Source: an uncultured Chloroflexia bacterium (GTDB lineage: Bacteria > Chloroflexota > Limnocylindria > Limnocylindrales > CSP1-4). From it: a stretch of DNA of 64,000 nt. Within the stretch, counting starts at the first letter, position 1. Every line of letters begins with the position of its first letter. A program made the translations under genes and the position numbers. The notes under the pieces are model-generated. The model did no database searches, had not been told where the DNA came from, and worked only from the letters and a program-made list of their open reading frames with translations. Shown one piece after another: positions 1 through 50,194 of this stretch. Location of the stretch: positions 673,030-737,029 of the forward strand of contig CAVSKY010000006.1 in NCBI GenBank assembly GCA_963728745.1. The letters run 5' to 3'.

Positions 1-90
1 GAGGCGCTTCGGCGGCTCGGTGACGCCGCCGGTACGCAGCTCGAGGAGCGCCTCGTAGCGGCGTTCATCGATGGCATCGAGACCGCACAC
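1..90 (-). CDS. hypothetical protein, 5' end only (gene runs off left edge)
   Basis: GTG at 90-88 opens a frame that stays open to position 1 (VCGLDAIDERRYEALLELRTGGVTEPPKRL). Third positions are G/C-rich. Too short to identify. Confidence 0.25.
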   Translation of the reverse strand, partial: MCGLDAIDERRYEALLELRTGGVTEPPKRL

Positions 91-155
91 GACGCGCCGT
101 TGCCGGGCGTGGAGACCGGGACGCCTATCTGGGTTCCCAGCGTCCAAGTCGCCTG

Positions 156-3143
156 ATGGCTCGCCGTCGCGCACGGCGCCAGGAGGCGGCCCGGCAGACG
201 GGGCTACTTGTCATCGGGGCGATCCTCGCACTCGGCCTGCCGGCCGTCGTGGCCGCCGCCCAGTCGTGGACGATCAGCACCGCACCGGCGCAGGTCGAGA
301 CGGGGGTCGCCACCGATGTCACGGTCACCGTTACGAACACGTCCGGCAACGACGGCGGCGGCGAAAGCATCGGTTGCGTCCGGATCTCGATCCCGTCCGA
401 GTTCGCTGTCGGTAGTGCCTCGGTGACCTCCGTTACGAACGGGCTGTCATGGTCCGTGTCGACGTCGTCGAGCGGCTCCACGCTCGTCGAGGCCAAGGCT
501 GGAGGCGACGGCGACCGCCTCCGTGGCGACCCCGACTTCGATGTCCTCGTGCTGACCGTGACCGTGACCGGAACGTCGCCCGGGAGTCACGTCTGGACGG
601 CTGACGAATACGAGAAGCCCGACTGCTCGCAGAATCACGACCAGCCGGTCTCGCTGCCGATGGACATCGGTACCGGCGCCAACGATCCCCCGATCGCCGC
701 CGACGATGCGTCCAGCGGGCTCCACGACCGAGTCCTGACCGTTGGGGCGCCCGGCATCCTCGGCAACGATAGCGACGCGGATTTCGACACGCTGACCGCG
801 GTGGTGGACAGCACAACGTCGAACGGAACGCTCGTTCTCGCTCCCGACGGTTCGTTCGACTACACGCCCGACCCGGGCTTCGTCGGCAGCGACAGCTTCA
901 CCTACTTCGCCGACGACGGAACCGCACCGTCCGCCATCGCGACCGTGACGATCGACGTGACGGATGCCGCTCCGGTCGCGAACGACGACGCCTACACCGT
1001 CGACAAGAACGCCTCGCTGTCGGTGGGCGCCGGTTCGGGCGTCATGGCCAACGACAGCGACCCGGACCCAGGTGAGTCGCTCGCGGCATCCGTCGTGAGC
1101 GGCCCCACCGACGGCACGCTGTCGCTCAACGGCGATGGATCATTCGATTATTCGCCGGATACCGGTTTCAGCGGGCCCGATACGTTCACGTACCGCGTGT
1201 CCGACGGCGCCCTCACGAGCACGGCCACGGTGACCATCGACGTGGTCAACCATGCGCCGAGCGCGGCGGACGACCTGTATGCCGGACCGAAGAATCTGCC
1301 GCTAAGCGTGAACGCGGCATCAGGCGTGCTCTCGAACGATCTCGATCCTGACGGCGATCCGCTCACGGCGACCGTCACGAGCGGTCCGTCGTCGGGGATC
1401 CTGTTGCTGGCCGGGGACGGTGGCTTCACGTACACGCCGCTCGTGGGCTTCGACGGCACCGACCAGTTCACGTACGAGGCGACCGACGGATCGGTGGCGG
1501 TGACCGCGACCGTCACGATCGGCATCGCGAACACCGCTCCGGTAGCGACGGATGACACCGCAAGCGCGATCCACGACCGCGACCTGGTCCTCGCGGCACC
1601 GGGCGTGCTGGCCAACGACAGCGACGGCAACGGTGATGCTCTCACGGTCACGCTGGTGACCGGCCCGGCATCGGGCACGGTGACGCTCGATCCCGATGGC
1701 GGCTACACCTATTCGCCTGCCACCGGTTTCACGGGCACCGACACCTTCACGTATCGCGCCGACGACGGAGCCGCGACGTCGGGTCTGGCCACCGTCACGA
1801 TCGACGTCACGAACGCCTCGCCCACCGCCGTCGACGACGGCTACGCCGGCCCGAAGGGACAGCCGCTCGTCGTCGATGCCGCGTCCGGCGTCCTCGGCAA
1901 CGACGCTGACCCCGACAACGACACGCTCCTCGCCGCCGTAACGACTCCACCGGTGAACGGCACGCTCGCCCTATCCGCCGACGGATCTTTCACCTACACG
2001 CCAGCGCCAGGGTTCATCGGCACCGACACCTTCGACTACACGGCGTCCGACGGCATCGCGACGGCGACGGCCACCGTCTCGATCACGATCTCGAACGCCG
2101 CCCCCGTCAGCGCCGACGACAGCTACAGCGTGTTCCGGAACCAGGCGCTGACCGTCGCACCGACCGGCGTTCTGGCCGACGATACCGACTCGGACGGCGA
2201 CCCCCTTACCGCCATCCTCCTGGTCTCCCCGGCACACGGCACCTTGGCCCTGGGCGCCGGTGGCGGTTTCACGTTCACGCCGGATGCGGGCTATGTCGGA
2301 CCGGACGCTTTCGCCTATCGGGCGTCGGATGGGGCGGACACTTCGGGACCGGCCACCGTCCAGATCGACGTCAAGGACCGGAAGCCAGCAGCCGCCGACG
2401 ACACGGCGACCGTCGTCGCGAACGGGCTCATCGTCAAGCCTGCGCCGGGTCTCCTTGGGAACGACGTCGATCCGGACGGCGACTCGCTCGTCGCCCTGCT
2501 CGGGACGGGCGCCGCGCACGGGACGGCCATCGTCCAGGCCGACGGCGGCTGGTCGTACGCACCAGATCCGGGCTACAGCGGGAGCGACACCTTCACCTAT
2601 GTCGCGTTCGATGGCCTGATGTCATCGTCCCCCGCCACCGTCCACCTCACGATCCACGCACCCGCACCCACGTCGACGGCGACGCCGGAGCCGACGGCCC
2701 AACCGACCCCGACGCCTGTGGTCGCACCCGTGGCGAGCGCCCCACCGGTGAGCCCATCGCCGAGCGTGGCACCGGCGTCGGCATCCCCGTCGCCAGCGGC
2801 GTCACCCATCCCGAGCGACCCGCCCTCGCCGACCACGTCTCCGATCCCCGTGGCATCGCCGCCGGATGGCTCGTTCGGCGAGGCGGCGTTCTCGATCCCC
2901 GACCCGGTCGGCGGGGCGGGCGGGTCGGACGACATAAGCCTGGCTGCCGCCGCGCTCGGTGGGTTCGGCTCGATCCTGTGGGCCGTGCCGAGCCTGATCC
3001 TGTCAGTACCGGGTCTTCTCCTGGTGCTGGCCATCCTCGCCCAGGCCGCCGGCGGCCTGGCTTGGCTGCCGATCGTCCGCCGCAAGCTCGGCGCGTTCGG
3101 TCTGCGTGCCGCTCGTCAGGCGAATGTGCCGACGCGCTCGTAG
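156..3143 (+). CDS. large secreted, membrane-anchored adhesin-like protein of the tandem-95-repeat (cadherin/Ig-like) type
   Basis: 995-aa ORF. N-terminal basic plus hydrophobic signal (MARRRARRQ...LGLPAVVAAAQS). Seven ~94-aa repeats (DD...GVL-x-ND-x-D-x-DGD-x-L...DG-x-F-x-Y-x-P...D-x-F-x-Y...ATVTIDV). Pro/Ser-rich spacer. C-terminal hydrophobic helices followed by RRK. Confidence 0.9.
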   Translation: MARRRARRQEAARQTGLLVIGAILALGLPAVVAAAQSWTISTAPAQVETGVATDVTVTVTNTSGNDGGGESIGCVRISIPSEFAVGSASVTSVTNGLSWSVSTSSSGSTLVEAKAGGDGDRLRGDPDFDVLVLTVTVTGTSPGSHVWTADEYEKPDCSQNHDQPVSLPMDIGTGANDPPIAADDASSGLHDRVLTVGAPGILGNDSDADFDTLTAVVDSTTSNGTLVLAPDGSFDYTPDPGFVGSDSFTYFADDGTAPSAIATVTIDVTDAAPVANDDAYTVDKNASLSVGAGSGVMANDSDPDPGESLAASVVSGPTDGTLSLNGDGSFDYSPDTGFSGPDTFTYRVSDGALTSTATVTIDVVNHAPSAADDLYAGPKNLPLSVNAASGVLSNDLDPDGDPLTATVTSGPSSGILLLAGDGGFTYTPLVGFDGTDQFTYEATDGSVAVTATVTIGIANTAPVATDDTASAIHDRDLVLAAPGVLANDSDGNGDALTVTLVTGPASGTVTLDPDGGYTYSPATGFTGTDTFTYRADDGAATSGLATVTIDVTNASPTAVDDGYAGPKGQPLVVDAASGVLGNDADPDNDTLLAAVTTPPVNGTLALSADGSFTYTPAPGFIGTDTFDYTASDGIATATATVSITISNAAPVSADDSYSVFRNQALTVAPTGVLADDTDSDGDPLTAILLVSPAHGTLALGAGGGFTFTPDAGYVGPDAFAYRASDGADTSGPATVQIDVKDRKPAAADDTATVVANGLIVKPAPGLLGNDVDPDGDSLVALLGTGAAHGTAIVQADGGWSYAPDPGYSGSDTFTYVAFDGLMSSSPATVHLTIHAPAPTSTATPEPTAQPTPTPVVAPVASAPPVSPSPSVAPASASPSPAASPIPSDPPSPTTSPIPVASPPDGSFGEAAFSIPDPVGGAGGSDDISLAAAALGGFGSILWAVPSLILSVPGLLLVLAILAQAAGGLAWLPIVRRKLGAFGLRAARQANVPTRS
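687..2657 (+). repeat. seven in-frame tandem ~285-bp (~94-aa) coding repeats inside the adhesin gene
   Basis: Repeat units start at PIAADD, PVANDD, PSAADD, PVATDD, PTAVDD, PVSADD and PAAADD. Each ends in a TV-x-I-x-[VI] strand. Confidence 0.9.
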
Positions 3144-4960: not shown

Positions 4961-5902
4961 ATGCATGCGAACCGAGTTTCGATCAAGCAGCTCACGCTGC
5001 TGCTCGTCGCCATGGCGGTCATCGTCGGCTGCGGCGGCGCCAGCCAGCAGCTGTCTACGGTGGGCAACGCCATCCCTGCCGGCGGCGATGAAGGTGGCGG
5101 CCTCCCGGCGGCGAGCGCCGCGCCAGCCGCGCCGAATGAACCAGGCACGCCCGACCAGGTCGGCAATCTCGTCGATGACGCCAGGATCGTGCGGACAGGC
5201 TCCATGGAGCTGGAGGTCACGGACGTGGCGGCCGCGCTGCTCACCGCCCGTGACGGGATCCGAGGCATGGGCGGTTACATCGGCGCCTCGGAGACCCAGA
5301 CCGTCGACGACCAGCAGGTGGCGAGGAACACGTACCGCATCCCCGTCGACCGTTGGGAGGACGCCCTCGACCTGATGCGCGGCATCGCCGGTGAAGCGAA
5401 GCGGGTGCTGAACGAGCGCACGCAGGCCGTCGAGGTGACGGGTGCCATCGTCGATCTCGAGGCGCGGATCAGGAACCTGCGCGCGAGCGAGGTCGCCCTC
5501 CAGGAGATCTCCTCGAGGGCAGCACGCGTGACCGACGTGCTCGAGGTGCAGGCACAGCTGACGGCGGTCCGCGGGCAGATCGAGCAGCTCACGGCGCAAC
5601 TGACCCAACTCGATGACCAGGCGTCGTACGCGACGCTGGATGTGACATTCAGCATGCCGATCGTCGCGGTCGAGGTCGCGGCCAAGGGCTGGGAGCCGGG
5701 GGTCGTCGTCGATGAGGCCAGCGCGAGTCTCGTGAACATCCTGCAGGCGCTCACGACTGCGGGCATCTGGTTCGCGATCGTCTGGCTTCCCCTGCTCGTC
5801 GTGTTCGCAGTCCTGGCCATCGTCGTGATCGCGATCCTGCGTCGCTTCGGCTACACGGGACCCGGCCGCCGGCGCCCGAGCGACGTCGCGACGACCGGAT
5901 AG
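4961..5902 (+). CDS. DUF4349-like lipoprotein / membrane protein
   Basis: Lipobox AVIVGC after a hydrophobic signal. Central coiled-coil-like segment (LEARIRNLRASEVALQEI...QLTAVRGQIEQLTAQLTQLDDQASYATLDVTF). Two C-terminal TM helices. Confidence 0.8.
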   Translation: MHANRVSIKQLTLLLVAMAVIVGCGGASQQLSTVGNAIPAGGDEGGGLPAASAAPAAPNEPGTPDQVGNLVDDARIVRTGSMELEVTDVAAALLTARDGIRGMGGYIGASETQTVDDQQVARNTYRIPVDRWEDALDLMRGIAGEAKRVLNERTQAVEVTGAIVDLEARIRNLRASEVALQEISSRAARVTDVLEVQAQLTAVRGQIEQLTAQLTQLDDQASYATLDVTFSMPIVAVEVAAKGWEPGVVVDEASASLVNILQALTTAGIWFAIVWLPLLVVFAVLAIVVIAILRRFGYTGPGRRRPSDVATTG

Positions 5903-40542: not shown

Positions 40543-41409
40543 ATGATCGACCGCCAGGCGCGCGATCTGCCGCTCGACGCGCATCTGCACACCGACCTGT
40601 CGCCGGATAGCGACGTACCCATCGACGTTTTTGCCGAGGCCGCAGCAGAGCGCGGCGTCGCCGAGATCGCGATCACCGACCACGTCGACTTCGTGCCCGA
40701 CACGCCGGCCTACGGGTACACGACGTTCGAGCAACGGGAGCGCGTGGTCCGTGATGCAGCCGGGCGATGGGCCGAGCGGGGCGTCGCGATCCGGTTCGGC
40801 GTCGAGATCACCTGGGACAGTCGCCATGCCGCCGACATCCGCGAGCACCTCGCCACGCACGCGTACGACTTCGTGATCGGCTCGGTCCACATCTACCGCG
40901 GATCGCCATTCGCGGCGGGCAATATCGTCGGCTGGATCGCCGGGCGGTCCCTGGGCGAGGTCGTGGCGCCGTACTTCGACGAAGTGACCGCCGCGGCTCG
41001 CTCCGGTCTGTTCGACGCGCTCGGCCACATCGATTTCGTGAAGCGCTGGCTGACACCGCACATCACGCCGGCCGACCTCGCTGCCGCTCCGGAGCTGTAC
41101 GAGCCGATCCTCGCTGCGCTGGTCGAGACGGGGACCGCCCTCGAGATCAACACGAGTGGCCTGCGCCAGGCTCCCAACGAGACCTACCCAGCCCCGCCGA
41201 TCGTGGCGCGCTTCCAGGAACTCGGTGGCCGAGGCGTGACGGTCGGCTCCGACGCCCATCGCGCGGATGCGTTCGCGTGGGGACTTGACGACGGCTACCT
41301 GGCGGCTTCGCTCGCCGGTTTCGACGCCCTCGCCTTCCGGCGCGGTGGCGCGTCCGTGGCGGTGCCGCTGAGCGCCGGACCTAACGCGATCGCGGGACGT
41401 TCGTTGTGA
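40543..41409 (+). CDS. PHP-domain phosphoesterase (HisJ-family histidinol-phosphatase-like)
   Basis: Metal-binding motifs DAHLHTDLSPDS, ITDHVDF, GSVH, LGHIDF and GSDAH. Confidence 0.82.
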   Translation: MIDRQARDLPLDAHLHTDLSPDSDVPIDVFAEAAAERGVAEIAITDHVDFVPDTPAYGYTTFEQRERVVRDAAGRWAERGVAIRFGVEITWDSRHAADIREHLATHAYDFVIGSVHIYRGSPFAAGNIVGWIAGRSLGEVVAPYFDEVTAAARSGLFDALGHIDFVKRWLTPHITPADLAAAPELYEPILAALVETGTALEINTSGLRQAPNETYPAPPIVARFQELGGRGVTVGSDAHRADAFAWGLDDGYLAASLAGFDALAFRRGGASVAVPLSAGPNAIAGRSL

Positions 41410-42005
41410 CCCTCGACGACTCCGCGATCGAGCGGTTGGTACAGGAAGCCCGCGCGGGGGACGCCTGGGCGTTCGGCCTCCTGTTCGACCACTATCACCT
41501 GCCGGTCTATCGCTACATCGCCAGCCGCGTCCACCGCCCGTCGGACGCGGAGGACCTGACGCAGCTCGTCTTCGTCAAGGCCCTGGAAGCGCTCCCGCGC
41601 TATGAAGTGCGGGGCATCCCGTTCGGGGGCTGGCTCTTCAGGCTGGCCAGGAATTGCGTCATCGACCACGTGCGCACGCGCCACGACCATCTCGATCTGG
41701 ACACCGCGAGTGGCCAGGCCGGCAGGGACGCGGGACCCGATGAGGTCACCGTGGCCAGGCAGCAGCTGGACGAGGTCGCGGTCGCATTGGCCGCACTCAC
41801 TGACGAACAACGAGACGCCATCGCATTGCGGTTCTTCGCGGGCCTGTCGGCGCGTGAGGCAGCAGCGGTGATGGGTAAGCAGGAAGGGACGATCCGCGGG
41901 CTCCAGTTCCGAGGCATCGCCGCGTTGCGGCGCCAGCTCCGGATCGACGAGCCGGCCAGCGACGGCGACGACCAGGTCGCCGACGCGAACGGGCGGATCG
42001 GTTGA
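41406..42005 (+). CDS. ECF-type RNA polymerase sigma-70 family factor
   Basis: Region 2 (VYRYIASRV...DAEDLTQLVFVKALE, WLFRLARNCVIDHVR) and region 4 (LRFFAGLSAREAAAVMGKQEGTIRGLQFRGIAALR). The GTG overlaps the upstream stop (GTGA). Confidence 0.9.
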   Translation: MTLDDSAIERLVQEARAGDAWAFGLLFDHYHLPVYRYIASRVHRPSDAEDLTQLVFVKALEALPRYEVRGIPFGGWLFRLARNCVIDHVRTRHDHLDLDTASGQAGRDAGPDEVTVARQQLDEVAVALAALTDEQRDAIALRFFAGLSAREAAAVMGKQEGTIRGLQFRGIAALRRQLRIDEPASDGDDQVADANGRIG

Positions 42006-42988
42006 TGGACGAGCAGATGATCGATCTCGTGGCCGGGGACGCACGTATGCGGCGGCGCCTTGAGGCGTACGCCGACGCGCGGCTGTCTCCGGACCTCGGG
42101 GCGTCGTCGCGGATGCGCGCGCGCGTCCTGGCCGTTGCCCATCGCCAGGCAAACCTCGCCCGGGCCGATGCGGCGCTGAGCGTCGTACATGGACGCGGCA
42201 TGCCATTCAGCACGCCGGCCGCTGATCGGATGGCGAGGCGTGCGGGATCCGCCGGCGCTCGGCTGCGGCGGCCACTGGCCGCGACGCTGGCCGCGGCCCT
42301 CGTCCTCGGCGGCGCTGCGGGCACAGCACTCGCGGCTCAAGCGGGTGGGGCCCTCTACGAGCCGCGGGTGTGGATCGAGACACTGACCCTGCCGAGCGAT
42401 CCGTCGACCCGCGCGGTCGCTGAGCTCGAGCGCCTCGAGTCGCGACTCCGGGAAGCGGACCAAGCCACGCGCAACGGCGACGCGGCCGGGGCAGCCGCAG
42501 CGCTGGCGGCCTATGAGCGGATCATGGAGTCGGCCTCCGAGGCAGCCATCGTCACCAACGACGAGGTCGCCGTGGCGATCCTCGAGGCAGGCGTCGGTCG
42601 CAATGTCGACGTGTTGCAGGCGTTGATCCTGGAGGTGCCGCCGGGTGCCGCCGAGGCGATCTCGCGCGTCGTCGAGCGGGCCGTCGCCCGCGCGGTGGAG
42701 CGCAGCGAGACCGCGATCGAGCGGATCGATACTGCCGGACCGTCCGACAACGGCGGCGGCAACGGCGGGAGTCCCGGTGGCCCAGGTGGTGGCGCTGGTG
42801 AAGCTGGTGGCGCGGACAAGCCGACCAAGCCACCGACCCCGGCGCCAACGCCCAAACCGACCAAGGAGCCCAACGCTGGGCCGACCGACCCAGGTGGCCA
42901 GGGCGGCCAGGGTGGCGGGCAGGGCAACCCGAACGAACCGAAGAAGACGCCGAAGCCCGACCCGACGCCGCGGCGAACGCCTCGCTGA
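42005..42988 (+). CDS. putative anti-sigma factor / membrane protein (DUF5667-like), with Gly/Pro/Lys-rich tail
   Basis: Starts 1 nt into the sigma stop. Cytoplasmic N-terminus and one TM (LAATLAAALVLGGAAGTALAA). Helical extracytoplasmic domain, then a low-complexity GGNGGSPGGPGG...KPTKPPTPAPTPKPTKEP tail. The family assignment is tentative. Confidence 0.6.
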   Translation: MDEQMIDLVAGDARMRRRLEAYADARLSPDLGASSRMRARVLAVAHRQANLARADAALSVVHGRGMPFSTPAADRMARRAGSAGARLRRPLAATLAAALVLGGAAGTALAAQAGGALYEPRVWIETLTLPSDPSTRAVAELERLESRLREADQATRNGDAAGAAAALAAYERIMESASEAAIVTNDEVAVAILEAGVGRNVDVLQALILEVPPGAAEAISRVVERAVARAVERSETAIERIDTAGPSDNGGGNGGSPGGPGGGAGEAGGADKPTKPPTPAPTPKPTKEPNAGPTDPGGQGGQGGGQGNPNEPKKTPKPDPTPRRTPR

Positions 42989-43030
42989 GCAGTCCCTCGC
43001 CGGCGGGCGGCGTCGGCTAGGCTGCGGGGC

Positions 43031-43795
43031 ATGCCGGCCGCAGGTTCGCTCCAGCTCGACGTCCTGGGCGCCGGACCGGCGTATACCGACCGGCCAGGGG
43101 CGGCCGGTGCGGCCTACCTGGTACGGGCCGGTACGACCGCGATCGTGCTCGATCTCGGGCAGGGCGTCTTCCCGCGTCTGGCCGCCCAGATCGAGCCGAG
43201 CACGCTCGACGCGATCGTGATCAGCCACCTCCACCCCGATCACTTCATCGATCTCGTCGCGCTTCGCCACTACCTGCGCTGGCAGTTCCACCCGACGCGC
43301 CATGTCCGGGTCATCGCCCCCGCGGGGCTCGAGACGCGCATCGACGCGCTCCACGACGAACCGGGGTTCACGGCGGCGTCGCTGGCCGTCGAGGAGATCG
43401 TGATCGGTACGACAGACATCGGCGATATTCGACTCGAGGCCAAGCGGGTGACCCACACACCCGACAGCCACGCCTTCCGGGTGTCAGCGGGTCGCGAGGG
43501 TATCGGCCTTGTCTATTCCGGGGATTGCGGCCGCGCTGAGGATCTCGATGCCCTCGTGCGCGAAGGCGACGTCATCATGAGCGAGGTGTCATTCGGACCC
43601 GGGCCTGTCGTGCACGACGCGGTCCATCTGGACGGGCCCGCGGTCGGTGCCCTCGCGTCGAGGACCGGAGCCGGGCGCGTCCTGCTCACGCATCTCCAGA
43701 TGGGGTTCGATCAGGCCGCGACGGTCGCCTCGGTGGCGTCCAGCTACGTCGGGCCGATCGAGTTCGTCGAGCCGGGGGCGCGCCTCACCATCTGA
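43031..43795 (+). CDS. MBL-fold metallo-hydrolase
   Basis: ISHLHPDHFIDL (HxHxDH) and later SGDCG and THL motifs. Confidence 0.85.
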   Translation: MPAAGSLQLDVLGAGPAYTDRPGAAGAAYLVRAGTTAIVLDLGQGVFPRLAAQIEPSTLDAIVISHLHPDHFIDLVALRHYLRWQFHPTRHVRVIAPAGLETRIDALHDEPGFTAASLAVEEIVIGTTDIGDIRLEAKRVTHTPDSHAFRVSAGREGIGLVYSGDCGRAEDLDALVREGDVIMSEVSFGPGPVVHDAVHLDGPAVGALASRTGAGRVLLTHLQMGFDQAATVASVASSYVGPIEFVEPGARLTI

Positions 43796-43863
43796 TGCCG
43801 GTCCGGACAGACGTCGACCGGGCTGCCGTGATGGCTGCCCGGTCGCTCAGGACTCGAGACGAT

Positions 43864-43900
43864 GGGCGGAGCGCCGCACGGACAGCGCGTCGCTCCGCCC
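43864..43900 (-). terminator. conserved 10-bp GC hairpin 3' of paralog 1 (no U-tract)
   Basis: GGGCGGAGCG-N17-CGCTCCGCCC, 33 nt after the stop. A near-identical copy lies at 44849-44885. Confidence 0.45.
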
Positions 43901-43932
43901 GGGTCTCGGGGACCCCGGAGTAGGGCTGCGTC

Positions 43933-44604
43933 CTAGCGGACGTCGTCCTTGCGGATGACGGCGCGCGCGGGCGTCAGCAAGAGCGCGGCGGCGAGCAGGC
44001 CCGCCATCGCGAGGAGCACGATCCGCCAGCCATCGCCGGTCGGCCCTGTGCCGGTCCCGTCGATCGTGCTGGTCGAAGGCAGTGTCGGGTCGGCCGTGGC
44101 GTCAGGCGGCGGTGTGCCGGTCGCACCACCCACACCACCGGTCGGTGCCGGGGTCGGTGATGGCGTCGCGCCAGGCAGCGTCGGCGTCGGTGCCAGGGTC
44201 GGCGTGGGCGTCGGAGCCAAGGTCGGGGTCGGTGACGGCGTCGCCTGGGCCGGGAGATTGCAGGCGTTGTTGTAGAAGGCCTGGCCTGCGGTCGTCCAGT
44301 TCAAACCCGGGAAGCTTCCACCCGTGAAGTCGAACGGCGGGATGATGTCACCCCATTCGACCGTGATGCCGTCGAACCAGACAGGACCCGTGTGATCGGC
44401 ATGCCCACTGACGTCGCCGCTCTTCGACGGGTTATGGACGACATACGGATTGCTGTGGGAGCCGGTGCTGTGGCAGATCGTGACGGTGTCCGGTCCGGCC
44501 GCGATCACGGTCGAGGACGGCACGAACAGGGCGGCGGCCGTGAGGCCGGCCACGGAGAGCCAGGCCAGCCGCCGACCGAGGCGAGAACGCGTTTGGGCAA
44601 TCAT
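43933..44604 (-). CDS. secreted Pro/Thr-linker surface protein, paralog 1 (ICH-x-TGS-x-x-NPY domain), conserved C-terminal module
   Basis: ATG 44604, preceded by GGGGACC with 7 nt spacing. Signal MIAQTRSRLGRRLAWLSVAGLTAAALFVPSSTVIAAG. Core TICHSTGSHSNPYVVHNPSKSGDVSGHADHTGPVWF. PT linker. Tail PTGGVGGATGTP...TLPSTSTIDGTGTGPTGDGWRIVLLAMAGLLAAALLLTPARAVIRKDDVR. Confidence 0.85.
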   Translation of the reverse strand: MIAQTRSRLGRRLAWLSVAGLTAAALFVPSSTVIAAGPDTVTICHSTGSHSNPYVVHNPSKSGDVSGHADHTGPVWFDGITVEWGDIIPPFDFTGGSFPGLNWTTAGQAFYNNACNLPAQATPSPTPTLAPTPTPTLAPTPTLPGATPSPTPAPTGGVGGATGTPPPDATADPTLPSTSTIDGTGTGPTGDGWRIVLLAMAGLLAAALLLTPARAVIRKDDVR

Positions 44605-44752
44605 TCGATACGGTCCCCAAGGTTGGATGAGGCAGACGCCTCGAAGCGATGACGGTCTCGGCACAGCGGCCCCCGCGCACAGGTCCGAGGCCGCGGATAG
44701 TCCCATGGTCCGGGAGCGGCGTCTAGTACTTTCGGCGACACGCGAGCGTCAA
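44605..44752 (-). promoter_or_regulatory. conserved 5' leader/promoter region, copy 1
   Basis: In mRNA sense it contains TTGACG-N18-TACTAG, GTACTAGAC, CCATGGGACTATCC, the hairpin GAGGC-GTCT-GCCTC (44629-44642) and the RBS-like GGGGACC. The blocks are shared in order with copies at 45794-45940 and 48179-48304. Confidence 0.5.
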
Positions 44753-44848
44753 ATTCCCGACACCGGTGCGATCGGACACCAGGGGGCATCGGACATGACG
44801 ACGACCGGGCGCCGGTGAGGCCACCCGGTCGATCAGGAGTCGAGACGG

Positions 44849-44885
44849 TGGGCGGAGCGGCGCACGGACAGCGCGTCGCTCCGCC
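44849..44885 (-). terminator. conserved 10-bp GC hairpin 3' of paralog 2
   Basis: GGGCGGAGCG-N17-CGCTCCGCCC, with stem and loop almost identical to 43864-43900. Confidence 0.45.
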
Positions 44886-44917
44886 CGGGTCTCGGGGACC
44901 CCAGGGTTAGGCTGCCG

Positions 44918-45793
44918 CTAGCGCGTGTCGTCGTCCTTGCGGATGACGGCCCGTGCGGGCGTCAGCAGGAGTGCGGTGGCGAGCAGGCCCGCCAGCGCAA
45001 GGAGGATCAGCCGCCAACCGTCGCTGGTCGGCCCAGTCCCGGTGGCGTCAAGCGTGCTGGTCGATGGCAGTGTCGGCGCCGAGGTCGCACCGCCGGCGCC
45101 GCCGGCAGGCGTGCCCGTCGCGCCACCGACGCCGCCGGTCGGGGCTTCGGTCGGCGCTGGCGAGCCGGTAGGCGCCTCGGTCGGCGCCGGCGTCCCGGTC
45201 GGCGCAGGCGTGCCGGTCGGCGCGGGCGTGCCGGTGGGGGCCTCGGTCGGCGCGGGCGTGCCGGTCGGCACGGCGGTCGCTGTCGGTGCGGTCGTCGGCG
45301 TCGGAGTCGGTGCCAGGGTCGGCAGTGCGGTGCACGTGTTGCCGTTTTGCTTCTGGGTGACGACGAACGGCGTGCCGCCGTCGACCGATCCAGCGAACGT
45401 CACGGCGCCCGGGCACGGGTTCTCATCCATCTCGAACAATGTCCAAGGGAAGAGCTCGATCCCGTCGTTGGTGTCGTTCTGGCTCCACGCGCCCTGCGCT
45501 TCGCCATCTTCGATGACGCACGCGCGGACGACCACGGTCCCGTCCGTGCCGAAGCCGTTGGGCGGTTCGGCCCGGCTCCACGTGACGGTCAGTCCGGCAG
45601 CCGAGATCGATAGCGCGACGAGCGGACTATCGGCGCCCGTGGTGGTGTTATTGCAGGCGACATCGTGCGGCACTGGATCCACGAGTGAGGCTGCGACCGG
45701 CGCCGCCGGGATGAACAGGGCCGACAGGGCCATCGCGGTGACGATCAGCCAGGCGAATCGGCGTGAGCGACGGGTGCGTTTCGATCCACTCAT
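44918..45793 (-). CDS. secreted Pro/Thr-linker surface protein, paralog 2, conserved C-terminal module
   Basis: ATG 45793 after GGGGACC with 7 nt spacing. Signal MSGSKRTRRSRRFAWLIVTAMALSALFIPAAPVAAS. Unique Cys-containing core. Long PT(A)[13 protein letters not shown] linker. Tail PTGGVGGATGTP...TLPSTSTLDATGTGPTSDGWRLILLALAGLLATALLLTPARAVIRKDDDTR. Confidence 0.85.
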   Translation of the reverse strand: MSGSKRTRRSRRFAWLIVTAMALSALFIPAAPVAASLVDPVPHDVACNNTTTGADSPLVALSISAAGLTVTWSRAEPPNGFGTDGTVVVRACVIEDGEAQGAWSQNDTNDGIELFPWTLFEMDENPCPGAVTFAGSVDGGTPFVVTQKQNGNTCTALPTLAPTPTPTTAPTATAVPTGTPAPTEAPTGTPAPTGTPAPTGTPAPTEAPTGSPAPTEAPTGGVGGATGTPAGGAGGATSAPTLPSTSTLDATGTGPTSDGWRLILLALAGLLATALLLTPARAVIRKDDDTR

Positions 45794-45940
45794 TCGATAG
45801 GGTCCCCAAGAAGGTCGAGGCATACGCCTCATTGCGATGAAGACCCTCGGCGCTGCGCCCCCGCGCACCAATCCGAGGTTCGGGGATAGTCCCATGGTCC
45901 TGGACCATCGTCTAGTACTTTCGGCCCAGTTCGTTGCGAC
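45794..45940 (-). promoter_or_regulatory. conserved 5' leader/promoter region, copy 2
   Basis: GTACTAGAC (45910-45918), CCATGGGACTATCC (45884-45897), hairpin GAGGC-GTAT-GCCTC (45817-45830) and GGGGACC (45801-45807). The upstream block CGTCGCAACGAA is shared with copy 3. Confidence 0.5.
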
Positions 45941-45960
45941 GTGGCACCGAACCCTCCGGG

Positions 45961-46000
45961 AAAAATGAAGGATCGCCGCCCATCGCGGACGACGATCCTT
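45961..46000 (-). terminator. intrinsic terminator of paralog 3
   Basis: mRNA sense: AAGGAUCGUCG-loop11-CGGCGAUCCUU (11 bp including one G-U) followed by CAUUUUU, 21 nt after the stop. Confidence 0.75.
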
Positions 46001-46020
46001 GGTGCGTGGACGGGTTGGGA

Positions 46021-46758
46021 TCAGCGATCGCTGGCCTGTCGGCGTGAAGGGGTGAGCACGATGAGGGCGGCCAGGGTGCCGGCAAGGGCGAGGATCGCCA
46101 GCCGCCAGAGCTCGATCGGCGTCGATGTGTTCGTGCTGGCCAACGTGTCGGTGGCCGGGAGTGTGGGACGGGGCGTCCCAGTCACGCCGCCGACCTCACC
46201 GGTGGGTGCTTCTGTCGGCGCGGGCGTCGACGTTGGCGTGGATTCCGGCGCAGGCGTTGGCGTGGGCGTCGCATCCGGCTCCGGCGTGGGCGTGGGCTCT
46301 GGTGTCGGCGTCGGGGTCGGCTCCGGCGTGGGCGTCGGCGTCGGCTCCGGCGTGGGCGTCGGGGTCGGCTCGGGCGTCGGCGTGGGCGTCGGCTGGACGC
46401 ATGCGCCGATGCTCAGGTTGAAGGTCTTGGTCCACCCCCGGGTGCCCGTCGGATCGTCCCAGGCCGTCACTGCGACCTTGGCGGTGTGCGCCTGGGTAGC
46501 TGGCTGGACCGCGAACGTGTTCGAGTACGACGACGTGAAGGAGAACGGCGAGCCCGCGACATCGGTGCCGTCGATCTCGACGTCGACCGAGTTCGAGCCG
46601 CCGGCGTTGTACTGGGTGAGGGTGACCTTGAGGCCGTTTTGGCAGGTCAGCGAAACGTTCGGTGTGTGGGCTGACACTGCGGTCGGCGCGGCGAGTGCCA
46701 GTGCCGCCAGGGCGGCGACGCCGATCCAGGAGAGTCTGCGCGTCGTTCGTGTGGACAT
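46021..46758 (-). CDS. secreted Pro/Thr-linker surface protein, paralog 3, conserved C-terminal module
   Basis: ATG 46758. Signal [30 protein letters not shown]. Beta-rich core of about 115 aa bounded by two Cys. (PTPTPEPT)n linker. Tail [61 protein letters not shown]. It has its own unrelated 5' region. Confidence 0.85.
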
Positions 46759-46807
46759 GTCGTTGGTTCCCCCCGGAACTAATGAGGCCAAAGCCTCGGC
46801 TGGTGGA

Positions 46808-46846
46808 TGAAGAACGGCCGCCACCCAAAGGTGGGCGGCGGCCGTC
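46808..46846 (-). terminator. intrinsic terminator of paralog 4
   Basis: mRNA sense: GC-rich imperfect hairpin ACGGCCGCCGCCCACC-UUU-GGGUGGCGGCCGU followed by UCUUC, about 40 nt after the stop at 46886. Confidence 0.6.
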
Positions 46847-46885
46847 TTGCTGCTCAGGGCCGGGTGCGCTCGGGGCACCTCGGGG

Positions 46886-48178
46886 TCAGCGGGCGCTGTC
46901 GTCCCTGCGGACCACGGCACGCGCCGGGGTCAGCATGAGGACGGCGGTCAGCACGCCGGCCATGGCCAGGAGGATGAGCCGCCAGCTGTCGCCGGCGGGG
47001 GCCGTCGGGCCCGCCACGTCCAGGGTGTCGGTGGCCGGCAGGGTCGCACGCGGCGTCCCGGTCACACCCCCGACGCCACCCGTGGGCGTGGGCTGGCTTT
47101 CAGGCGAGTTATCGACGATCACGATGGTCCAGCTGAGCTGCGAGACGTCACCCTCGTTGGGTTCGCACTCGATGAGCCCGCCGAAGTCCCAGATACAGGT
47201 CACTGATAGATCGATGTTGAGCTCGACGAGGATCGGGTCCGTGCCGACGAAGCCGGCCGGGACGACGGTCTCGACGATCCAGTACATGCCGCCATCGAGC
47301 AGATCGGTGTCGAGCATCCCGCCCGGCGCAGCCGCCGGACCGAAGACGAGCTCGTCCTGGTCGGTCTCGAAGACCTCGTCACCGTCATCGGCCCACACCT
47401 CGAACGTAGCGCCATCGAGCGCGTCGTCGTCGGCGGGATCGGCGGTGCCCTTGTTGTCGACCTTGGCGATCAGGATGCTGGCCTGGCGCGGCTCCTCGGT
47501 CGGGGCCGGCGTTGGGGTCGGCGTCGCACCCGGCGGGGTCGGCGTCGGCGTGGGCGTGGGCTCAGGCGTGGGCGTGGGCTCAGGCGTGGGCGTGGGCTCA
47601 GGCGTAGGCGTGGGCTCAGGCGTAGGCGTGGGCTCAGGCGTAGGCGTGGGCGTGGGATCAGGGGTCGGCGTCGGCGTCGCCTGGATCGGCGCATCGAAGC
47701 AGAACGAGATGTGGCTGATGCCGTTGCCGCTGCCGTCCTGGGGCTCGAGTTCGGTATCGCCCATGGACTCGGTGGCGCCGGCAGTCGCCGCATACACGTA
47801 TAGCTGATGCTTGGACGATCCGGCCTTCACGAAGACCGCGTCGATGCCGAAGGTCGACGACCAGTCGAAGCTGCCGGGCTCACCGGAGTCCGACTGCTCG
47901 AAGTTCGACACTGTGATGGTCCCGAAGCCGGCCACGTTGATCGTGCCGTTCTTGGGCGGATCCGACTTGACTTCCTGCCACGGCTGGCCACCGCCATGCG
48001 TCGCGGCGAAGGTCGCGCAGGTCGGGTTGCCGCTGTTGATGGCGATCGGGTTGACCGATGCAGCCAGCACAGGCGCGGCCGATGGCGCCAGCAGCGCCGC
48101 CGTCGTGAGGGAGAGCACGGCCAGCCACGACAAGCGGCGGGCCAGGCGCGGTCGCGCGCCAAAACAAGCAGACGTCAT
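46886..48178 (-). CDS. secreted two-domain surface protein, paralog 4 (N-terminal beta domain + SpaA/Cna-B-like prealbumin-fold domain), conserved C-terminal module
   Basis: ATG 48178 after GGGGACC. Signal [40 protein letters not shown]. Domain 1 ends in [11 protein letters not shown] linker. Domain 2 ([10 protein letters not shown]...[13 protein letters not shown]...[14 protein letters not shown]) resembles Gram-positive SpaA/Cna-B-type domains. Tail [66 protein letters not shown]. Confidence 0.85.
47547..47660 (-). repeat. near-perfect 18-bp tandem repeat (about 6 units) encoding the (PTPTPE)n linker of paralog 4
   Basis: Plus-strand unit ggcgt[g/a]ggcgtgggctca is repeated head to tail from 47547. 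Similar but less regular repeats lie in paralog 3 (about 46255-46390) and in the kinase tail (about 20140-20225). Confidence 0.85.
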
Positions 48179-48304
48179 GTGACGGTCCCCGAGCGGAGGC
48201 AAGTGCCTCGATTGAGTGGTCCCCCGTCGGTGGCTTTCCCGAAGGTCGTCCGTGCACCGACTGAGGCCGGGATATTCCCATGGCAGTCCTAGCCGGTCTA
48301 GTAC
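48179..48304 (-). promoter_or_regulatory. conserved 5' leader region, copy 3 (paralog 4)
   Basis: GTACTAGAC (48296-48304), CCATGGGAATATCC (48270-48283), hairpin GAGGC-ACTT-GCCTC (48196-48209) and GGGGACC (48184-48190). The block CGTCGCAACGAA lies further upstream at about 48361-48372. Confidence 0.5.
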
Positions 48305-48475
48305 CTGTGGCGACCGGCAACCGCACCGTTCCGTCATCAACCGCCCACGAGACGCCGATTTCGTTGCGACGCGGCAACGATGGGTACTCCCAGTACCCCA
48401 GGACGCACGGGCCAGGACCCGCACCGGTACGATGGGCGCCCCTCCAAACGTCCACATCGGAGGTCCGACGCCGCC

Positions 48476-50194
48476 GTGATCCCGCCGCCACTGCGCACGC
48501 AAGTCCGCGACGCGGTCCGGCGCGCCTGGGACAAGGCCATCGACGACGGAGCGTTCGCCAAGCCCGCGGACGACGACAGCAGACCGGACGTCGAGGTCGA
48601 GCATCCAGCGGATCCGGAGCATGGGGATCTGGCGAGCAACCTGGCACTCAAGCTCGCCCGCCCCTACCGCAAGCCGCCGCTCGAGATCGCGACGTTGCTG
48701 GCGGCCAAGCTCGTGCGCGAAGGGAGCGCCGATGGGTCGTCCTCGCCTGTCGAGGCGGTCGAGGTCGCACCGCCGGGCTTCCTGAACATCCGGATCAAGC
48801 CAGAAGCGCTCGAGACGATCGTGGACGGGATCCTGGCTTCGCCCGATGCCTGGGGGCGGGTCGATCCGGTCGAACCCCGCGCGGTCAACGTGGAGTTCGT
48901 GTCAGCCAACCCGACGGGACCGCTCACGGTCGGCAACGCCAGGGGGGCCTTCATCGGCGACCTGCTGAGCCGCGTGCTCGAGGCAGGCGGACAGCGCGTC
49001 ACGCGCGAGTACTACTTCAACGACGTCGGCGGCCAGATCCCGAACCTCGGCGCATCGATCGTGGCGATCCGACGCGGCGAGGCTATCCCGGACGATGGCT
49101 ACCACGGCGGGTACGTGGAGGAGCTCGCGACGAGCGTGCCCGACGACGTGTGGGCGGAGGCGATGTCCGGCGAGGCTGATCCCGCGGCGATCGTCGGCCA
49201 CTGGGCTGCGGGTCTCGTCCGCGAAGGGATCGAGGCGAGCCTCGAGCGCCTCGGCGTCCACTTCGACGTCTGGACGACCGAAGCGTCACTGCACGACGGT
49301 GGCTGGGTCGAGCGCGCCGTCGAGCGACTCCGGGAGCGAGGCCACGTCTACGAGGACGACGGCGCTGTGTGGTTCCGCTCGACCGACTTCGGCGACGACA
49401 AGGATCGGGTGATCTATCGGTCCAACGGCCAGCCGACCTACTTCGCTGCGGACATCGGCTACGTGACCGAGAAGTTCAGCCGCGGGTTCGATCATCTGAT
49501 CTACATCTGGGGCGCCGACCACCACGGGACGGTCGCCCGAGTACGCAACGCGGCGCGGGCGATGGGCTACGACCCAGCCCGAGTGCAGATGCACCTGTAC
49601 TCGTGGGTGCGCTTCGTGCGCGATGGCGTCGAGGTGTCGATGTCCAAGCGCGCCGGCGAGTTCGTGACGCTCGACGAGGTCCTGTCCGAGGTCGGGGTCG
49701 ATGCTGCGCGCTGGTTCTTCGCCTCCCGCGGCGCGACATCCGCCATCGACTTCGACATCGAGCAGATGCGCGGTCATCGAGAAGCGCTCGAACAGGGTCA
49801 CTACGAGGAGGCCAGCAAGAACCCGGTCTACTACGTCCAGTACGCCCATGCACGCATCGCATCGATCCTGCGAAAGGCGAGCGACAGCGGTCTTGTGCCC
49901 GCAGAAACGGTCGCCGGCACGCTGGCGGCCGGACCGGAGGCGGCGCTCGCCCGCGCCATCGTGCGATTCCCGGAGGTCGTGGAGGACGCGGTGACGGCCG
50001 AGGAGACACAGGGCATCACCGGCTACGCGACGGAGCTGGCGACGGCGTTCCACGCCTTCTACCGCGACGCACGCGTGGTCGATCCTGCCGAGCCGCAGCG
50101 GTCGGCCGCACGCCTCGCGCTCGCGCGCACGGCCCAGATCACGCTCGCCCGGACGCTCGATCTGCTCGGGATCTCGGCGCCCGAGTCGATGTAG
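48476..50194 (+). CDS. argS: arginine--tRNA ligase
   Basis: Class I signatures [15 protein letters not shown] (HIGH-like) and [10 protein letters not shown] (KMSK-like), with a DALR anticodon-binding C-terminus. GTG 48476 (GGAGG 12 nt upstream) is preferred over ATG 48380, which adds an Arg/Pro-rich extension. Confidence 0.92.

Follow-up and report, generated by a model that had tools for sequence, protein, structure and literature searches.

What kind of locus places, one behind the other, four genes whose ends are shared and whose central parts look unrelated? This question is raised by a tandem array of four putative surface-protein genes in a stretch of DNA of 64,000 nucleotides (nt) (GCA_963728745.1, contig CAVSKY010000006.1, positions 673,030 to 737,029, forward strand; G+C content about 70%), which is referred to here as the window and whose positions serve as coordinates throughout. 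A preliminary description had suggested that the four genes are separately transcribed, and that their conserved flanks reflect shared regulation and sorting or provide a substrate for cassette exchange or gene conversion. The present analysis favors, with a probability of roughly 0.75, the interpretation that the array is one copy of a surface-protein island of the Limnocylindria (Chloroflexota), made of self-contained units of interchangeable modules whose cassettes have been shuffled in the course of evolution.

Layout of the array

Four open reading frames (ORFs) were located on the minus strand, with ATG starts at 44604, 45793, 46758 and 48178 and ends at 43933, 44918, 46021 and 46886, and are referred to as genes 1 to 4 (43933..44604, 223 amino acids (aa); 44918..45793, 291 aa; 46021..46758, 245 aa; and 46886..48178, 430 aa). 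All four encode the same order of parts, in agreement with the preliminary description: a signal peptide, a Cys-bounded head, a linker of Pro/Thr tandem repeats (PT linker) and a conserved tail of 60–75 aa (about 65 aa). Gene 4, which adjoins argS, is the only one of the four that adds a SpaA stalk. The signal peptides consist of a basic N-terminus with RRLAWL, RRFAWL, RRLSWI or RRLSWL, a hydrophobic stretch and an AxA-type site, and follow the family motif R-R-x-[ASG]-W.

The head cassette of gene 1 lies between the signal-peptidase site and the PT linker (44230..44496, minus strand, as are all array features given below). Those of genes 2, 3 and 4 lie at 45314..45685, 46399..46668 and 47684..48058. 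The PT linkers occupy 44146..44229 in gene 1, as a period-24 tandem repeat, and 45143..45313, 46207..46398 and 47483..47683 in genes 2, 3 and 4.

Unrelated heads between related flanks

The four heads are shown by profile comparison to belong to unrelated families, as their appearance had suggested. No similarity among the four window heads was detected by blastp, and the comparison of head family profiles with hhalign gave probabilities of 0.2–2% for every pair, whereas a control pair of related families, H4 and H7, gave 94.7%. Each head represents a family of its own with members in other genomes, in which orthologs are 50–96% identical. In all four heads, one Cys is found 8–14 residues from the mature N-terminus and another immediately at the PT linker or up to about 10 residues ahead of it, which suggests a disulfide bond tying the ends of the domain together, an arrangement apt for an insertable cassette.

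The nucleotide identity between genes 1 and 2 was 42% further upstream, which is noise, 76.6% over the promoter-like element and leader, 63% over the signal peptide, 45% over the head (shuffled sequence, 34 ± 8), 29% over the PT linker, 79% over the tail and 84% over the 3' untranslated region (UTR), with 95% over 79 nt in the first 3' UTR hairpin. Both blastn and a repeat finder indicated the same blocks, namely 43941–44088 versus 44929–45076 (86%), 43833–43929 versus 44819–44915 (90%) and 44692–44736 versus 45881–45925 (89%). The similarity of the two genes at their 3' ends, reported earlier for the tail and the 3' UTR hairpin, was thus reproduced, and so was that at their 5' ends, except that the latter resides chiefly in untranslated sequence and not mainly in the signal peptide. 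Genes 3 and 4 share a TLPATDT subtype of the tail (81% over 67 nt), and their PT repeats are alike.

Such a pattern might also arise by plain tandem duplication and fast divergence, in which the four genes would stem from one ancestor and the heads would be homologous beyond recognition under diversifying selection. The duplicated flanks of genes 1 and 2 (leader 77%, tail 79%, 3' UTR 84%) are consistent with this explanation, as are the small size of all heads, with one Cys near each end, and the fact that the sole confident head model, that of gene 3, is a beta sandwich. Against it stand the profile-profile probabilities and the separate family of each head, and the comparisons with related genomes described below, in which identity falls as a step and not as a gradient at the cassette borders and heads turn up outside a single frame (H3 and H2 also within the stalked gene-4 frame; H1 or H9 between one identical signal peptide and tail). 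Taken together, these observations make duplication and divergence an improbable explanation.

Exchange of heads among related genomes

Related loci are designated by L numbers and related proteins by P numbers. In the closest genome, L099, gene 1 was 95.7% identical to the window over the leader, 91.7% over the signal peptide, 62.6% over the head, 76.5% over the PT linker, 92.5% over the tail and 92.7% over the 3' UTR, against a background of 86.8% for argS and 88.6% for the MBL gene. Sliding-window analysis located the steps in identity at the signal-peptidase site (about 44497) and within the PT linker (about 44213), which thus contains the 3' breakpoint of the head swap; head identity was 40–75%, and identity on both sides was 90–100%. 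The head of the gene 2 ortholog in L099 was 84% identical at the nucleotide level.

The argS-proximal gene was compared in six further loci (L017, L004, L001, L013, L016 and L002). Its leader, signal peptide and tail were 68–86% identical at the nucleotide level, roughly at or around the level of argS (76–78%), and the stalk was kept in all but L002, but none of the six heads aligned with the head of gene 4. In L013 a gene-3 head (77% nt identity) was found inside the gene-4 frame, and in L016 a gene-2 head (66% aa identity) was found inside the gene-4 frame, fused to the SpaA stalk. Among database proteins, every head family was found both with and without a stalk.

Metagenomes were scanned with the gene-1-type string that extends from the Shine-Dalgarno (SD) sequence to the ATG, and 32 matching stretches were obtained, about two dozen of which lead into genes of the family. 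The soil metagenome genes share a common leader, and most have identical first 22 aa of the signal peptide and, where complete, an identical tail, while the head within this frame is of type H1 in some and of the unrelated H9 type in others. The flanks were 78–96% identical at the nucleotide level, and the head was at noise (26–46%). These mosaic profiles support the conclusion, drawn from sequence comparison, that heads have been swapped by recombination among related genomes.

Whole units are also gained and lost. The array consists of two genes in L009, three in L099 and four in the window. In L009, orthologs are present for genes 4 and 1 alone; the 2028-bp block 44779–46806, which contains genes 3 and 2, is absent, and about 21 nt lie between the flanking homologous blocks at the junction, just past the gene-4 terminator. 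L099 carries genes 4, 2 and 1, and at about 5400–5450 on its minus strand, matching window positions 46005–46755, there is a scar ORF of 15 codons, or 16 if the stop is counted, MALMLTPAHTKDDAR, with a gene-3-type SD region and terminator retained. Because a start codon is fused in this ORF to the very end of a tail, with a terminator like that of gene 3 behind it, L099 is judged from its sequence to have lost gene 3 by a recent internal deletion of the whole surface-protein gene. The locus is therefore not static among related genomes, and its flanks are far more conserved than its cores, as the differing array sizes and the comparison of gene 1 with L099 indicate.

The preliminary description had considered both cassette exchange and gene conversion. 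Exchange of heads between species or populations agrees with the profiles above. Gene conversion between genes 1 and 2 is not supported and was rejected on the basis of the ortholog/paralog identity matrix: tails group by ortholog and not by genome, with identities of 85–91% between orthologs and 74–77% between paralogs, and for this reason concerted evolution is rejected as well.

Two independent assemblies (99.7% and 98.3% identity) are colinear with the array and have the same head in each slot, and consequently the array is not an assembly artefact. These near-identical assemblies differ from the window array only by small indels in the PT repeats. In the PT linker of gene 4, at 47610–47640, indels of 10–15 nt were observed between near-identical assemblies, and the gene is called there as two pieces; such indels represent either a real polymorphism in repeat length or long-read error in an 18-nt repeat.

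Another explanation is programmed antigenic or phase variation, in which an expression site would receive donor cassettes by gene conversion, or segments would be inverted site-specifically, within a clonal population. The conserved flanks, variable cores and tandem arrangement resemble systems of the sap, vls and pilS type, and the small PT-repeat indels between near-identical assemblies would also fit. Nevertheless, none of the genes looks like a silent cassette: an SD region, a complete signal peptide, a tail and a terminator belong to each of the four, and a separate promoter-like element precedes each of genes 1, 2 and 4. No inverted repeats of at least 20 nt were found in 43500–48700, and neither a recombinase nor a reverse transcriptase is annotated (by Pfam labels) within ±10 kb. 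With the colinear assemblies and the grouping of tails by ortholog added, programmed variation appears very improbable. Exchange was seen between species or populations and not as switching within a strain, for which the comparison comprised the two near-identical assemblies. The conserved flanks look to be kept by function and to be used now and then as recombination arms.

In the interpretation preferred here, each unit would begin with a sigma-70-like promoter with an extended -10 and a structured leader of about 90 nt, followed by the signal peptide with its AxA site and the Cys-bounded head, then by the PT linker, which is probably extended and O-glycosylated, an optional SpaA/CnaB stalk, the tail and a hairpin terminator. 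The protein would be exported, and the tail would arrest it in the membrane, where it would either stay as an anchor or be recognized by a dedicated sorting enzyme, while linker and stalk would hold the head off the cell. Homologous recombination in the conserved flanks, that is, in leader and signal peptide on one side and in PT linker, stalk or tail on the other, has replaced heads over evolutionary time, as the mosaic identity profiles show, and whole units have been gained or deleted between terminators.

A conserved island between argS and an MBL/ECF block

The arginyl-tRNA synthetase (ArgRS) encoded beside the array has its best relatives (at most 89% identity) in metagenome-assembled genomes (MAGs) labelled Chloroflexia/Chloroflexota and Candidatus Limnocylindrales, and the ArgRS neighborhoods of 80 MAGs assign the window to the Limnocylindria. 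When a hidden Markov model (HMM) built from the four tails was applied to these 80 argS neighborhoods, about 49 ORFs were found, nearly all on the same strand and directly upstream of argS, with one to three tail-bearing ORFs per locus.

A separate scan for tails by DNA patterns, independent of the argS-based search, covered 185,579 species genomes. True tails were found only on contigs of the Limnocylindria lineage, a few of them with other bin labels but the same synteny. They form arrays of two to four same-strand genes, almost always between argS and a block encoding an MBL-fold hydrolase, an anti-sigma factor and an ECF sigma factor, the window counterpart of which lies at 41406–43795. 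A counterpart of gene 4 is present in nearly all related genomes. In the 64 kb of the window, a motif pattern search found no tail-like motifs outside the four genes. By this conserved synteny, the array is one instance of a conserved surface-protein island in the slot between argS and the MBL/ECF block.

The C-terminal tail

The tail consensus called from alignments is PTGxVGGxTGTP, 1–10 aa, T(L/P)PxT(D/S)T and a spacer of 12–15 aa ending in [DE]xWR, followed by a hydrophobic helix (LxLLAMAGLLAxxLLL), TPxR and a basic end; the distance from the (L/P)PxT(D/S) motif to the transmembrane (TM) helix is 13–16 aa. The hydrophobic helix and the positively charged end are located at the extreme C-terminus in the tail alignments. 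The tail module of gene 1 (43936..44145) consists of PTGGVGGATGTP, TLPSTST, 13 aa, WR, the TM helix, LTPAR and a basic end. That of gene 2 is located at 44921..45142, and those of genes 3 (46024..46206) and 4 (46889..47086) are of the TLPATDT type mentioned above. In an AlphaFold2 (AF2) model of gene 3, a signal helix spans aa 4–23 and a seven-strand sandwich aa 31–120, the latter with a predicted local distance difference test (pLDDT) score of about 90; linker and motif region are disordered, and the TM helix is placed at aa 217–235, at the C-terminus.

An exhaustive HMMER search of 1.84 billion representative proteins with the tail retrieved at least 801 protein clusters at E ≤ 1e-3, of which 303 were retrieved at E ≤ 1e-10. 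In nearly all of the 150 best matches listed, the tail match lies a few residues from the C-terminus, and the proteins range from 50 to 1817 aa. Among 107 representatives, the motif was LPPTD in 56, PPPTD in 13, PPSTD in 8 and PPPTS in 8; the motif was found in 101 of the 107, and in these Thr was followed by D, S, N or E, never by G. The four window tails have LPSTS twice and LPATD twice, none with Gly after Thr. The TM segment starts with WR in 79 and with PGF in 9 of the 107. Passenger domains identified by Pfam in these relatives include DUF11, DUF7507, SpaA and its variants, VWA, SdrD_B and GBS104-like Ig domains, a set characteristic of surface proteins of the Gram-positive type, with SpaA (PF17802) matching 13 of the 107. 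The preliminary expectation of shared sorting is consistent with a lineage-wide C-terminal module of this kind. The term "sorting tail" holds insofar as a common C-terminal module is present, but the module is not a canonical LPXTG signal.

The LPXTG models PF00746 and TIGR01167 matched none of the four full proteins at E ≤ 1 and none of six isolated tails at E ≤ 10, and the LPXTG model was not among the 25 families listed, of 29 found, for the 107 relatives. Matches below threshold, to the helix only, were obtained with PGF-CTERM (8–11 bits versus cut-offs of 18.8 and 24.5) and Heimdall-CTERM (13.9 versus 24), at E values of 0.05–2. A word-indexed tail-profile search returned only short fragments, all named "hypothetical" except one, which the NCBI record names "cell wall anchor protein". 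No exosortase, archaeosortase, rhomboid or myxosortase was found in the annotated neighborhoods of related loci, and nothing obvious as a sorting enzyme lies beside the tail loci away from argS (L088, L106, L110 and L111). A search of the literature on Limnocylindria surface proteins, Chloroflexi sortase signals and LPxTD motifs found nothing relevant. In its architecture, the tail has the three-part layout of known sorting tags such as LPXTG and PGF-CTERM, with a putative signature, a TM helix and a basic cluster, in a sequence that is uncurated.

Two specific mechanisms may be considered for the tail. The first is that it is a divergent sortase signal, cleaved after the Thr of (L/P)PxT(D/S) and leading to linkage to peptidoglycan or to polymerization. 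Its LPxT core, TM helix and basic C-terminus agree with this possibility, as do passengers that are classic sortase-substrate domains (SpaA, SdrD_B, VWA and tip-pilin-like Ig) and the single fragment named as a cell wall anchor. Sortases that accept a residue other than Gly after Thr also exist (NPQTN, LPNTA). On the other hand, the LPXTG models do not match, Gly never follows Thr, the motif is 13–16 aa from the TM helix, the segment past the motif (WR, LLAMAG, TPxR) is strongly conserved, which is unusual for a discarded propeptide, and no credible active-site motif was found in the DNA examined. A divergent sortase signal is accordingly considered doubtful, if still to be reckoned with.

The second mechanism is a membrane-embedded tag of the exosortase, archaeosortase, rhombosortase or myxosortase kind, in which the WR or PGF boundary would be recognized by an intramembrane enzyme and cleaved, possibly with linkage to a lipid. 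Like MYXO-CTERM (PMC11980579) and GlyGly-CTERM (PMC6219818), the tail has three parts, is lineage-specific and is present on hundreds of proteins. Its boundary residues and the end of the TM segment are conserved, giant island proteins have N-P-G-F at the TM start, and the weak PGF-CTERM and Heimdall-CTERM matches point the same way. Thr-rich linkers also precede PGF-CTERM in haloarchaeal S-layer glycoproteins. Yet all HMM matches are below threshold and to the hydrophobic helix only, the annotated neighborhoods hold no exosortase or rhomboid gene, and the most conserved motif, LPxTD, lies well outside the membrane, so that a tag of this kind seems unlikely.

The giant island proteins, of about 1660–1905 aa, were found in the same island of other genomes, at L003 1921–6903, L006 892–6609, L007 1790–6772, L020 2208–7916 and L110 24–5135. 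Their tail is a variant module, ...TLPPTDT...NPGF-TM-VTPVPxSVRERxRR, with PGF at the helix start, and their relatives (P0163 in L084 and the split genes of L083) carry DUF11, DUF7507 (CLIPPER) and SpaA labels.

Promoter-like elements, leaders and 3' elements

A promoter-like element of the form GTAC-TAGAC(C/G), 17 nt, TGn-nAnTAT was found upstream of genes 1, 2 and 4. It is located at 44697..44729 for gene 1 (GTAC-TAGACG, 17 nt, TGG-GACTAT), where a promoter function is presumed, at 45886..45918 for gene 2 (89% identical to the gene-1 copy) and at 48272..48304 for gene 4. A consensus promoter scan had given no site; the element found later has three to four matches out of six per hexamer. In about 20 relatives, the element occurs at a fixed distance from the ATG (-124 to -137), and element and leader alike show conservation between Limnocylindria species. 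Window-wide, the promoter pattern was counted three times and the pattern of the final leader hairpin (P3) with the SD four times, in each case at the array genes. A family-specific promoter-like element and leader fit the shared regulation proposed earlier.

An ECF-sigma-type promoter, which a neighboring sigma/anti-sigma pair would make conceivable, was considered and rejected: the element fits a -35, a 17-nt spacing and an extended -10, and the distance of the upstream GCAACGAA box is not fixed. As a separate observation, a 27-nt box (…TCGTTGCGACG…) at 45924–45950 and 48354–48380, with 85% identity between the copies, is located upstream of the promoter elements of genes 2 and 4 at differing distances, and this TCGTTGCGACG box may be a binding site for a regulator.

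The 5' leaders of genes 1 (44605..44690), 2 (45794..45879) and 4 (48179..48265) were predicted to be structured. That of gene 1 contains helices P1 and P2 and the P3 hairpin GAGGC-N4-GCCTC immediately 5' of the SD sequence GGGGA, and that of gene 2 has the same architecture. In gene 4, P1 is GTCGGTG/CACCGAC, with compensatory changes in relatives, and is followed by the P3 hairpin and SD. The P3 hairpin (GAGGC-N3-6-GCCTC) occurs once per gene directly 5' of the SD, with the compensatory variants GGGGC/GCCCC and GAAGC/GCTTC in relatives; in gene 3 it is located, with the SD, at 46769..46797. P1 was 96% paired, with compensatory changes at two pairs, and its covariation exceeded that of 497 of 500 shuffles, which is suggestive only. 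From a MAFFT alignment, RNAalifold retrieved no pairing other than P1 and an alternative one, CCUC:GGGG, by which the SD sequence would be masked. A search of 43500–48700 against Rfam 15 at E ≤ 1 gave no match. Genes of S-layer and other major surface proteins typically have a strong promoter and a long, structured leader. Judged by its conservation and predicted pairing, the leader is a candidate for a new motif that may act as an mRNA stabilizer or as an SD-masking switch.

Each gene was seen to have its own hairpin or terminator, as described before. The 3' UTR of gene 1 (43800..43932), which ends the array, contains two long hairpins (z -5.1), and that of gene 2 (44785..44917) contains a paralogous copy of this element (z -3.95; 90%). 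Gene 3 is followed by an intrinsic terminator (45968..46000; a 15-pair stem and then a T run; z -2.8), and gene 4 by a terminator hairpin and then TTCTTCAT (46812..46848; z -4.3). The earlier statement that the four genes are separately transcribed is still a deduction from sequence, and four separate transcripts are unproven because gene 3, which lies 127 nt behind the gene-4 terminator, has no promoter element.

The two-hairpin 3' UTR was also observed in L009, L013, L002, L001, L006, L020, L007 and L003, where it is 82–96% identical across species. At the end of the array the element is more conserved than the adjacent coding sequence, and the MBL-hydrolase gene converges on it from the other side. 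The element may terminate transcription in both directions or act as an RNA in its own right.

Heads and stalk

The H1 family, which comprises 12 sequences, has invariant C, H, H and H residues and WGDIIPP, and the gene 1 head reads ICHxTGSxxNPY ... GHxxHxGP ... WGDIIPP. The invariant positions in the alignment of gene 1 heads are C-H, P-Y, G-H-x-x-H-x-G-P and W-G-D-I-I-P-P, and these residues may form a metal site. Orthologs of gene 1 were found in L009, L099, L002 and L045. The H1 allele of the window diverges from those in L099 and L009 and was observed to be nearer to P0204 and P0206–P0208 (60–70% identity) than to its own orthologs in these two loci (about 57%). Because these four proteins have a different signal peptide and a different C-terminus (...VTVSPRFTG), the closer match suggests that the gene 1 head allele of the window was imported from outside.

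The gene 2 head (H2) contains four Cys. The gene 3 head (H3), a seven-strand beta sandwich in the AF2 model, has an invariant His at mature position 1, where the signal peptide is predicted to be cut off (AVSA|HTP), and H61, D71 and the two terminal Cys do not vary either. The invariant N-terminal His prompted the idea of a copper site of the CopC/YcnI type (a histidine brace) in this head, which was unsupported by Pfam and PDB profile searches. When the PDB was searched by sequence with gene 4 and with the H1 and H3 profiles, only low-complexity or chance matches were obtained. Of the 16 H4 family members found in related loci, some have a stalk and others do not.

The SpaA/Cna-B-like domain noticed earlier in gene 4 was recognized by Pfam as PF17802 over aa 249–321 (30.1 bits versus a cut-off of 23.1; E 5.4e-7), within a stalk at aa 233–362 (47093..47482). 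In 25 relatives, conservation is at least 95% for E303, N357, C328 and C338 and at least 80% for K239. By analogy with the family, K239 and N357 are candidates for a Lys-Asn isopeptide bond, with E303 as the catalytic Glu.

Neighboring genes and annotation

The plus-strand region 41406–42988 encodes an ECF sigma factor and a protein of 328 aa whose C-terminal region is rich in Gly, Pro and Thr; the latter is labelled a putative anti-sigma factor by position and sequence, and Pfam gave no match. The ECF sigma factor, the putative anti-sigma factor and the MBL hydrolase adjoin the island in nearly every related genome, and the array promoters do not look ECF-type. At the start of the window, a large plus-strand protein (24–3143) has cadherin-like and Big_9 repeats (Pfam) and a hydrophobic C-terminal segment, ...LLLVLAILAQAAGGLAWLPIVRRKLG..., which matches none of the tail motif patterns searched. 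It represents a second putative type of surface anchor in the same genome.

In the gene calls of L081 and L082, gene 3 is called on the opposite strand and gene 4 is split; PT-rich, high-GC sequence contains long antisense ORFs. Members of the four-gene family are probably under-annotated in public data, because callers misplace the strand or split genes in such sequence.

Weighing of the interpretation

Several observations weigh against reading the array as self-contained, regulated and anchored units. The folding energies of the leaders were no better than those of shuffled sequence (z -0.9 to +0.5), the covariation is modest, and gene 3 has no detectable promoter element but only the final hairpin and SD. 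The promoter, the start sites and the leader structure are predictions only, and the sigma-70-like assignment is a deduction from the form of the element. No curated Pfam or NCBIfam model of a sorting signal reaches its cut-off on the tail, in full proteins or in isolated tails. A search of the window and of 82 related loci (1.27 Mb) for the sortase active-site pattern (TLxTC-type) found no credible sortase, with one chance match in L076, and a sortase Pfam label is absent from the annotated neighborhoods and from the called genes over roughly the first 56 kb of the window. Processing of the tail is conjectural, and a plain uncleaved TM anchor is equally compatible with its sequence. The AF2 model of the gene 1 head, built from 12 sequences, reached a pLDDT of 61.5 and was left out of the fold search for that reason. 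For the gene-3 head model, Foldseek returned only generic Ig/FN3/CopC-like folds (best E 0.012), and no function is assignable to the heads from profile, PDB or fold searches.

A wider proposal, which is put forward as a whole and tentatively, at rather less than even odds, is that the tail is an undescribed, class-wide C-terminal sorting tag of the Limnocylindria ("LPxTD-WR-CTERM") served by a dedicated enzyme, that the shared promoter and the leader of about 90 nt would constitute a new cis-regulatory or stabilizing RNA element of this secretome, and that the argS-MBL island would be the main determinant of the cell surface, diversified by exchange of head cassettes. The enzyme may be a sortase specific for Asp or Ser behind the Thr, or else a protease resembling sortases that acts within the membrane.

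Significance

Limnocylindria are widespread in soil and freshwater. We know of no cultured, characterized representative, and no description of the Limnocylindria cell surface was found in the literature searched. The tail profile provides a sequence definition of the surface secretome of this lineage, one that already retrieves the protein clusters counted above, and a handle for finding the sorting enzyme by phylogenetic profiling. The locus is a clean natural example of cassette exchange at the level of a domain, one breakpoint lying at the signal-peptidase site and the other within the PT linker. Gene callers now split or mis-strand these genes, and annotation could gain from the use of the tail and of the family-specific promoter and leader; these elements could also guide surface-display or expression tools for Chloroflexota. 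That anchoring modules are conserved while functional domains vary is a principle long familiar in Gram-positive bacteria; the tail, its putative enzyme and the leader are open leads in an uncultured, abundant lineage.

Comparison with known systems

The nearest likeness in protein layout is to LPXTG/sortase substrates (PF00746/TIGR01167), which also have a signal peptide and Ig-like, CnaB or SpaA passengers, are encoded in clustered genes and end in a motif containing LPxT, one hydrophobic helix and a basic end. The array tail differs in having Asp or Ser and never Gly after Thr, a motif 13–16 aa from the helix, conserved helix borders (WR ... TPxR) as well as a conserved helix, and an extra upstream GxVGGxTGTP box; it has no HMM match, and a sortase was not found in the 1.27 Mb examined.

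Lineage-specific, three-part C-terminal sorting tags are known as MYXO-CTERM/myxosortase (PMC11980579) and GlyGly-CTERM/rhombosortase (PMC6219818). As in these, and in PGF-CTERM/archaeosortase and PEP-CTERM/exosortase, the extreme C-terminus of the array proteins combines a putative signature with a TM helix and a basic cluster. The tail also shares the restriction to one lineage, many unrelated passengers and a Thr/Pro-rich linker in front, as in haloarchaeal S-layer glycoproteins, and in the giant island proteins PGF even stands where the helix starts. It differs in that no model reaches threshold on it, its best-conserved motif is outside the membrane, and its host is a class of Chloroflexota; no such system was found in the literature searched, and there was no NCBIfam match.

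Campylobacter fetus sap, Neisseria pilE/pilS, Borrelia vlsE and Mycoplasma vsp/vlp are classical systems of cassette-based surface variation. Like the array, they combine ends that are conserved with cores that vary, arranged in tandem at a single locus. Unlike them, the array has no silent cassettes, has a translation start and a terminator of its own for each gene, and has no inversion sites or recombinase, and near-identical strains are unvaried.

A closer precedent for the exchange is the cwp/slpA "S-layer cassette" of C. difficile, which is exchanged between lineages by homologous recombination in conserved flanks (PMC7677006). Both the cwp/slpA cluster and the array are chromosomal sets of paralogous surface proteins with a shared anchoring module and differing functional domains. 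In C. difficile the anchor is the non-covalent wall-binding module CWB2, whereas in the array it is a C-terminal tail of the TM type; moreover, the array exchanges a single head domain of about 270–375 bp within a gene, between the signal peptide and the PT linker, and its heads also move between stalked and unstalked frames.

By analogy, then, the array would work like an anchored surface-protein family of the Gram-positive type and would diversify like the C. difficile S-layer cassette. The principle is already familiar; what is new in the array is an uncurated, class-wide tail, a family-specific promoter and leader, and a well-resolved exchange of single heads.

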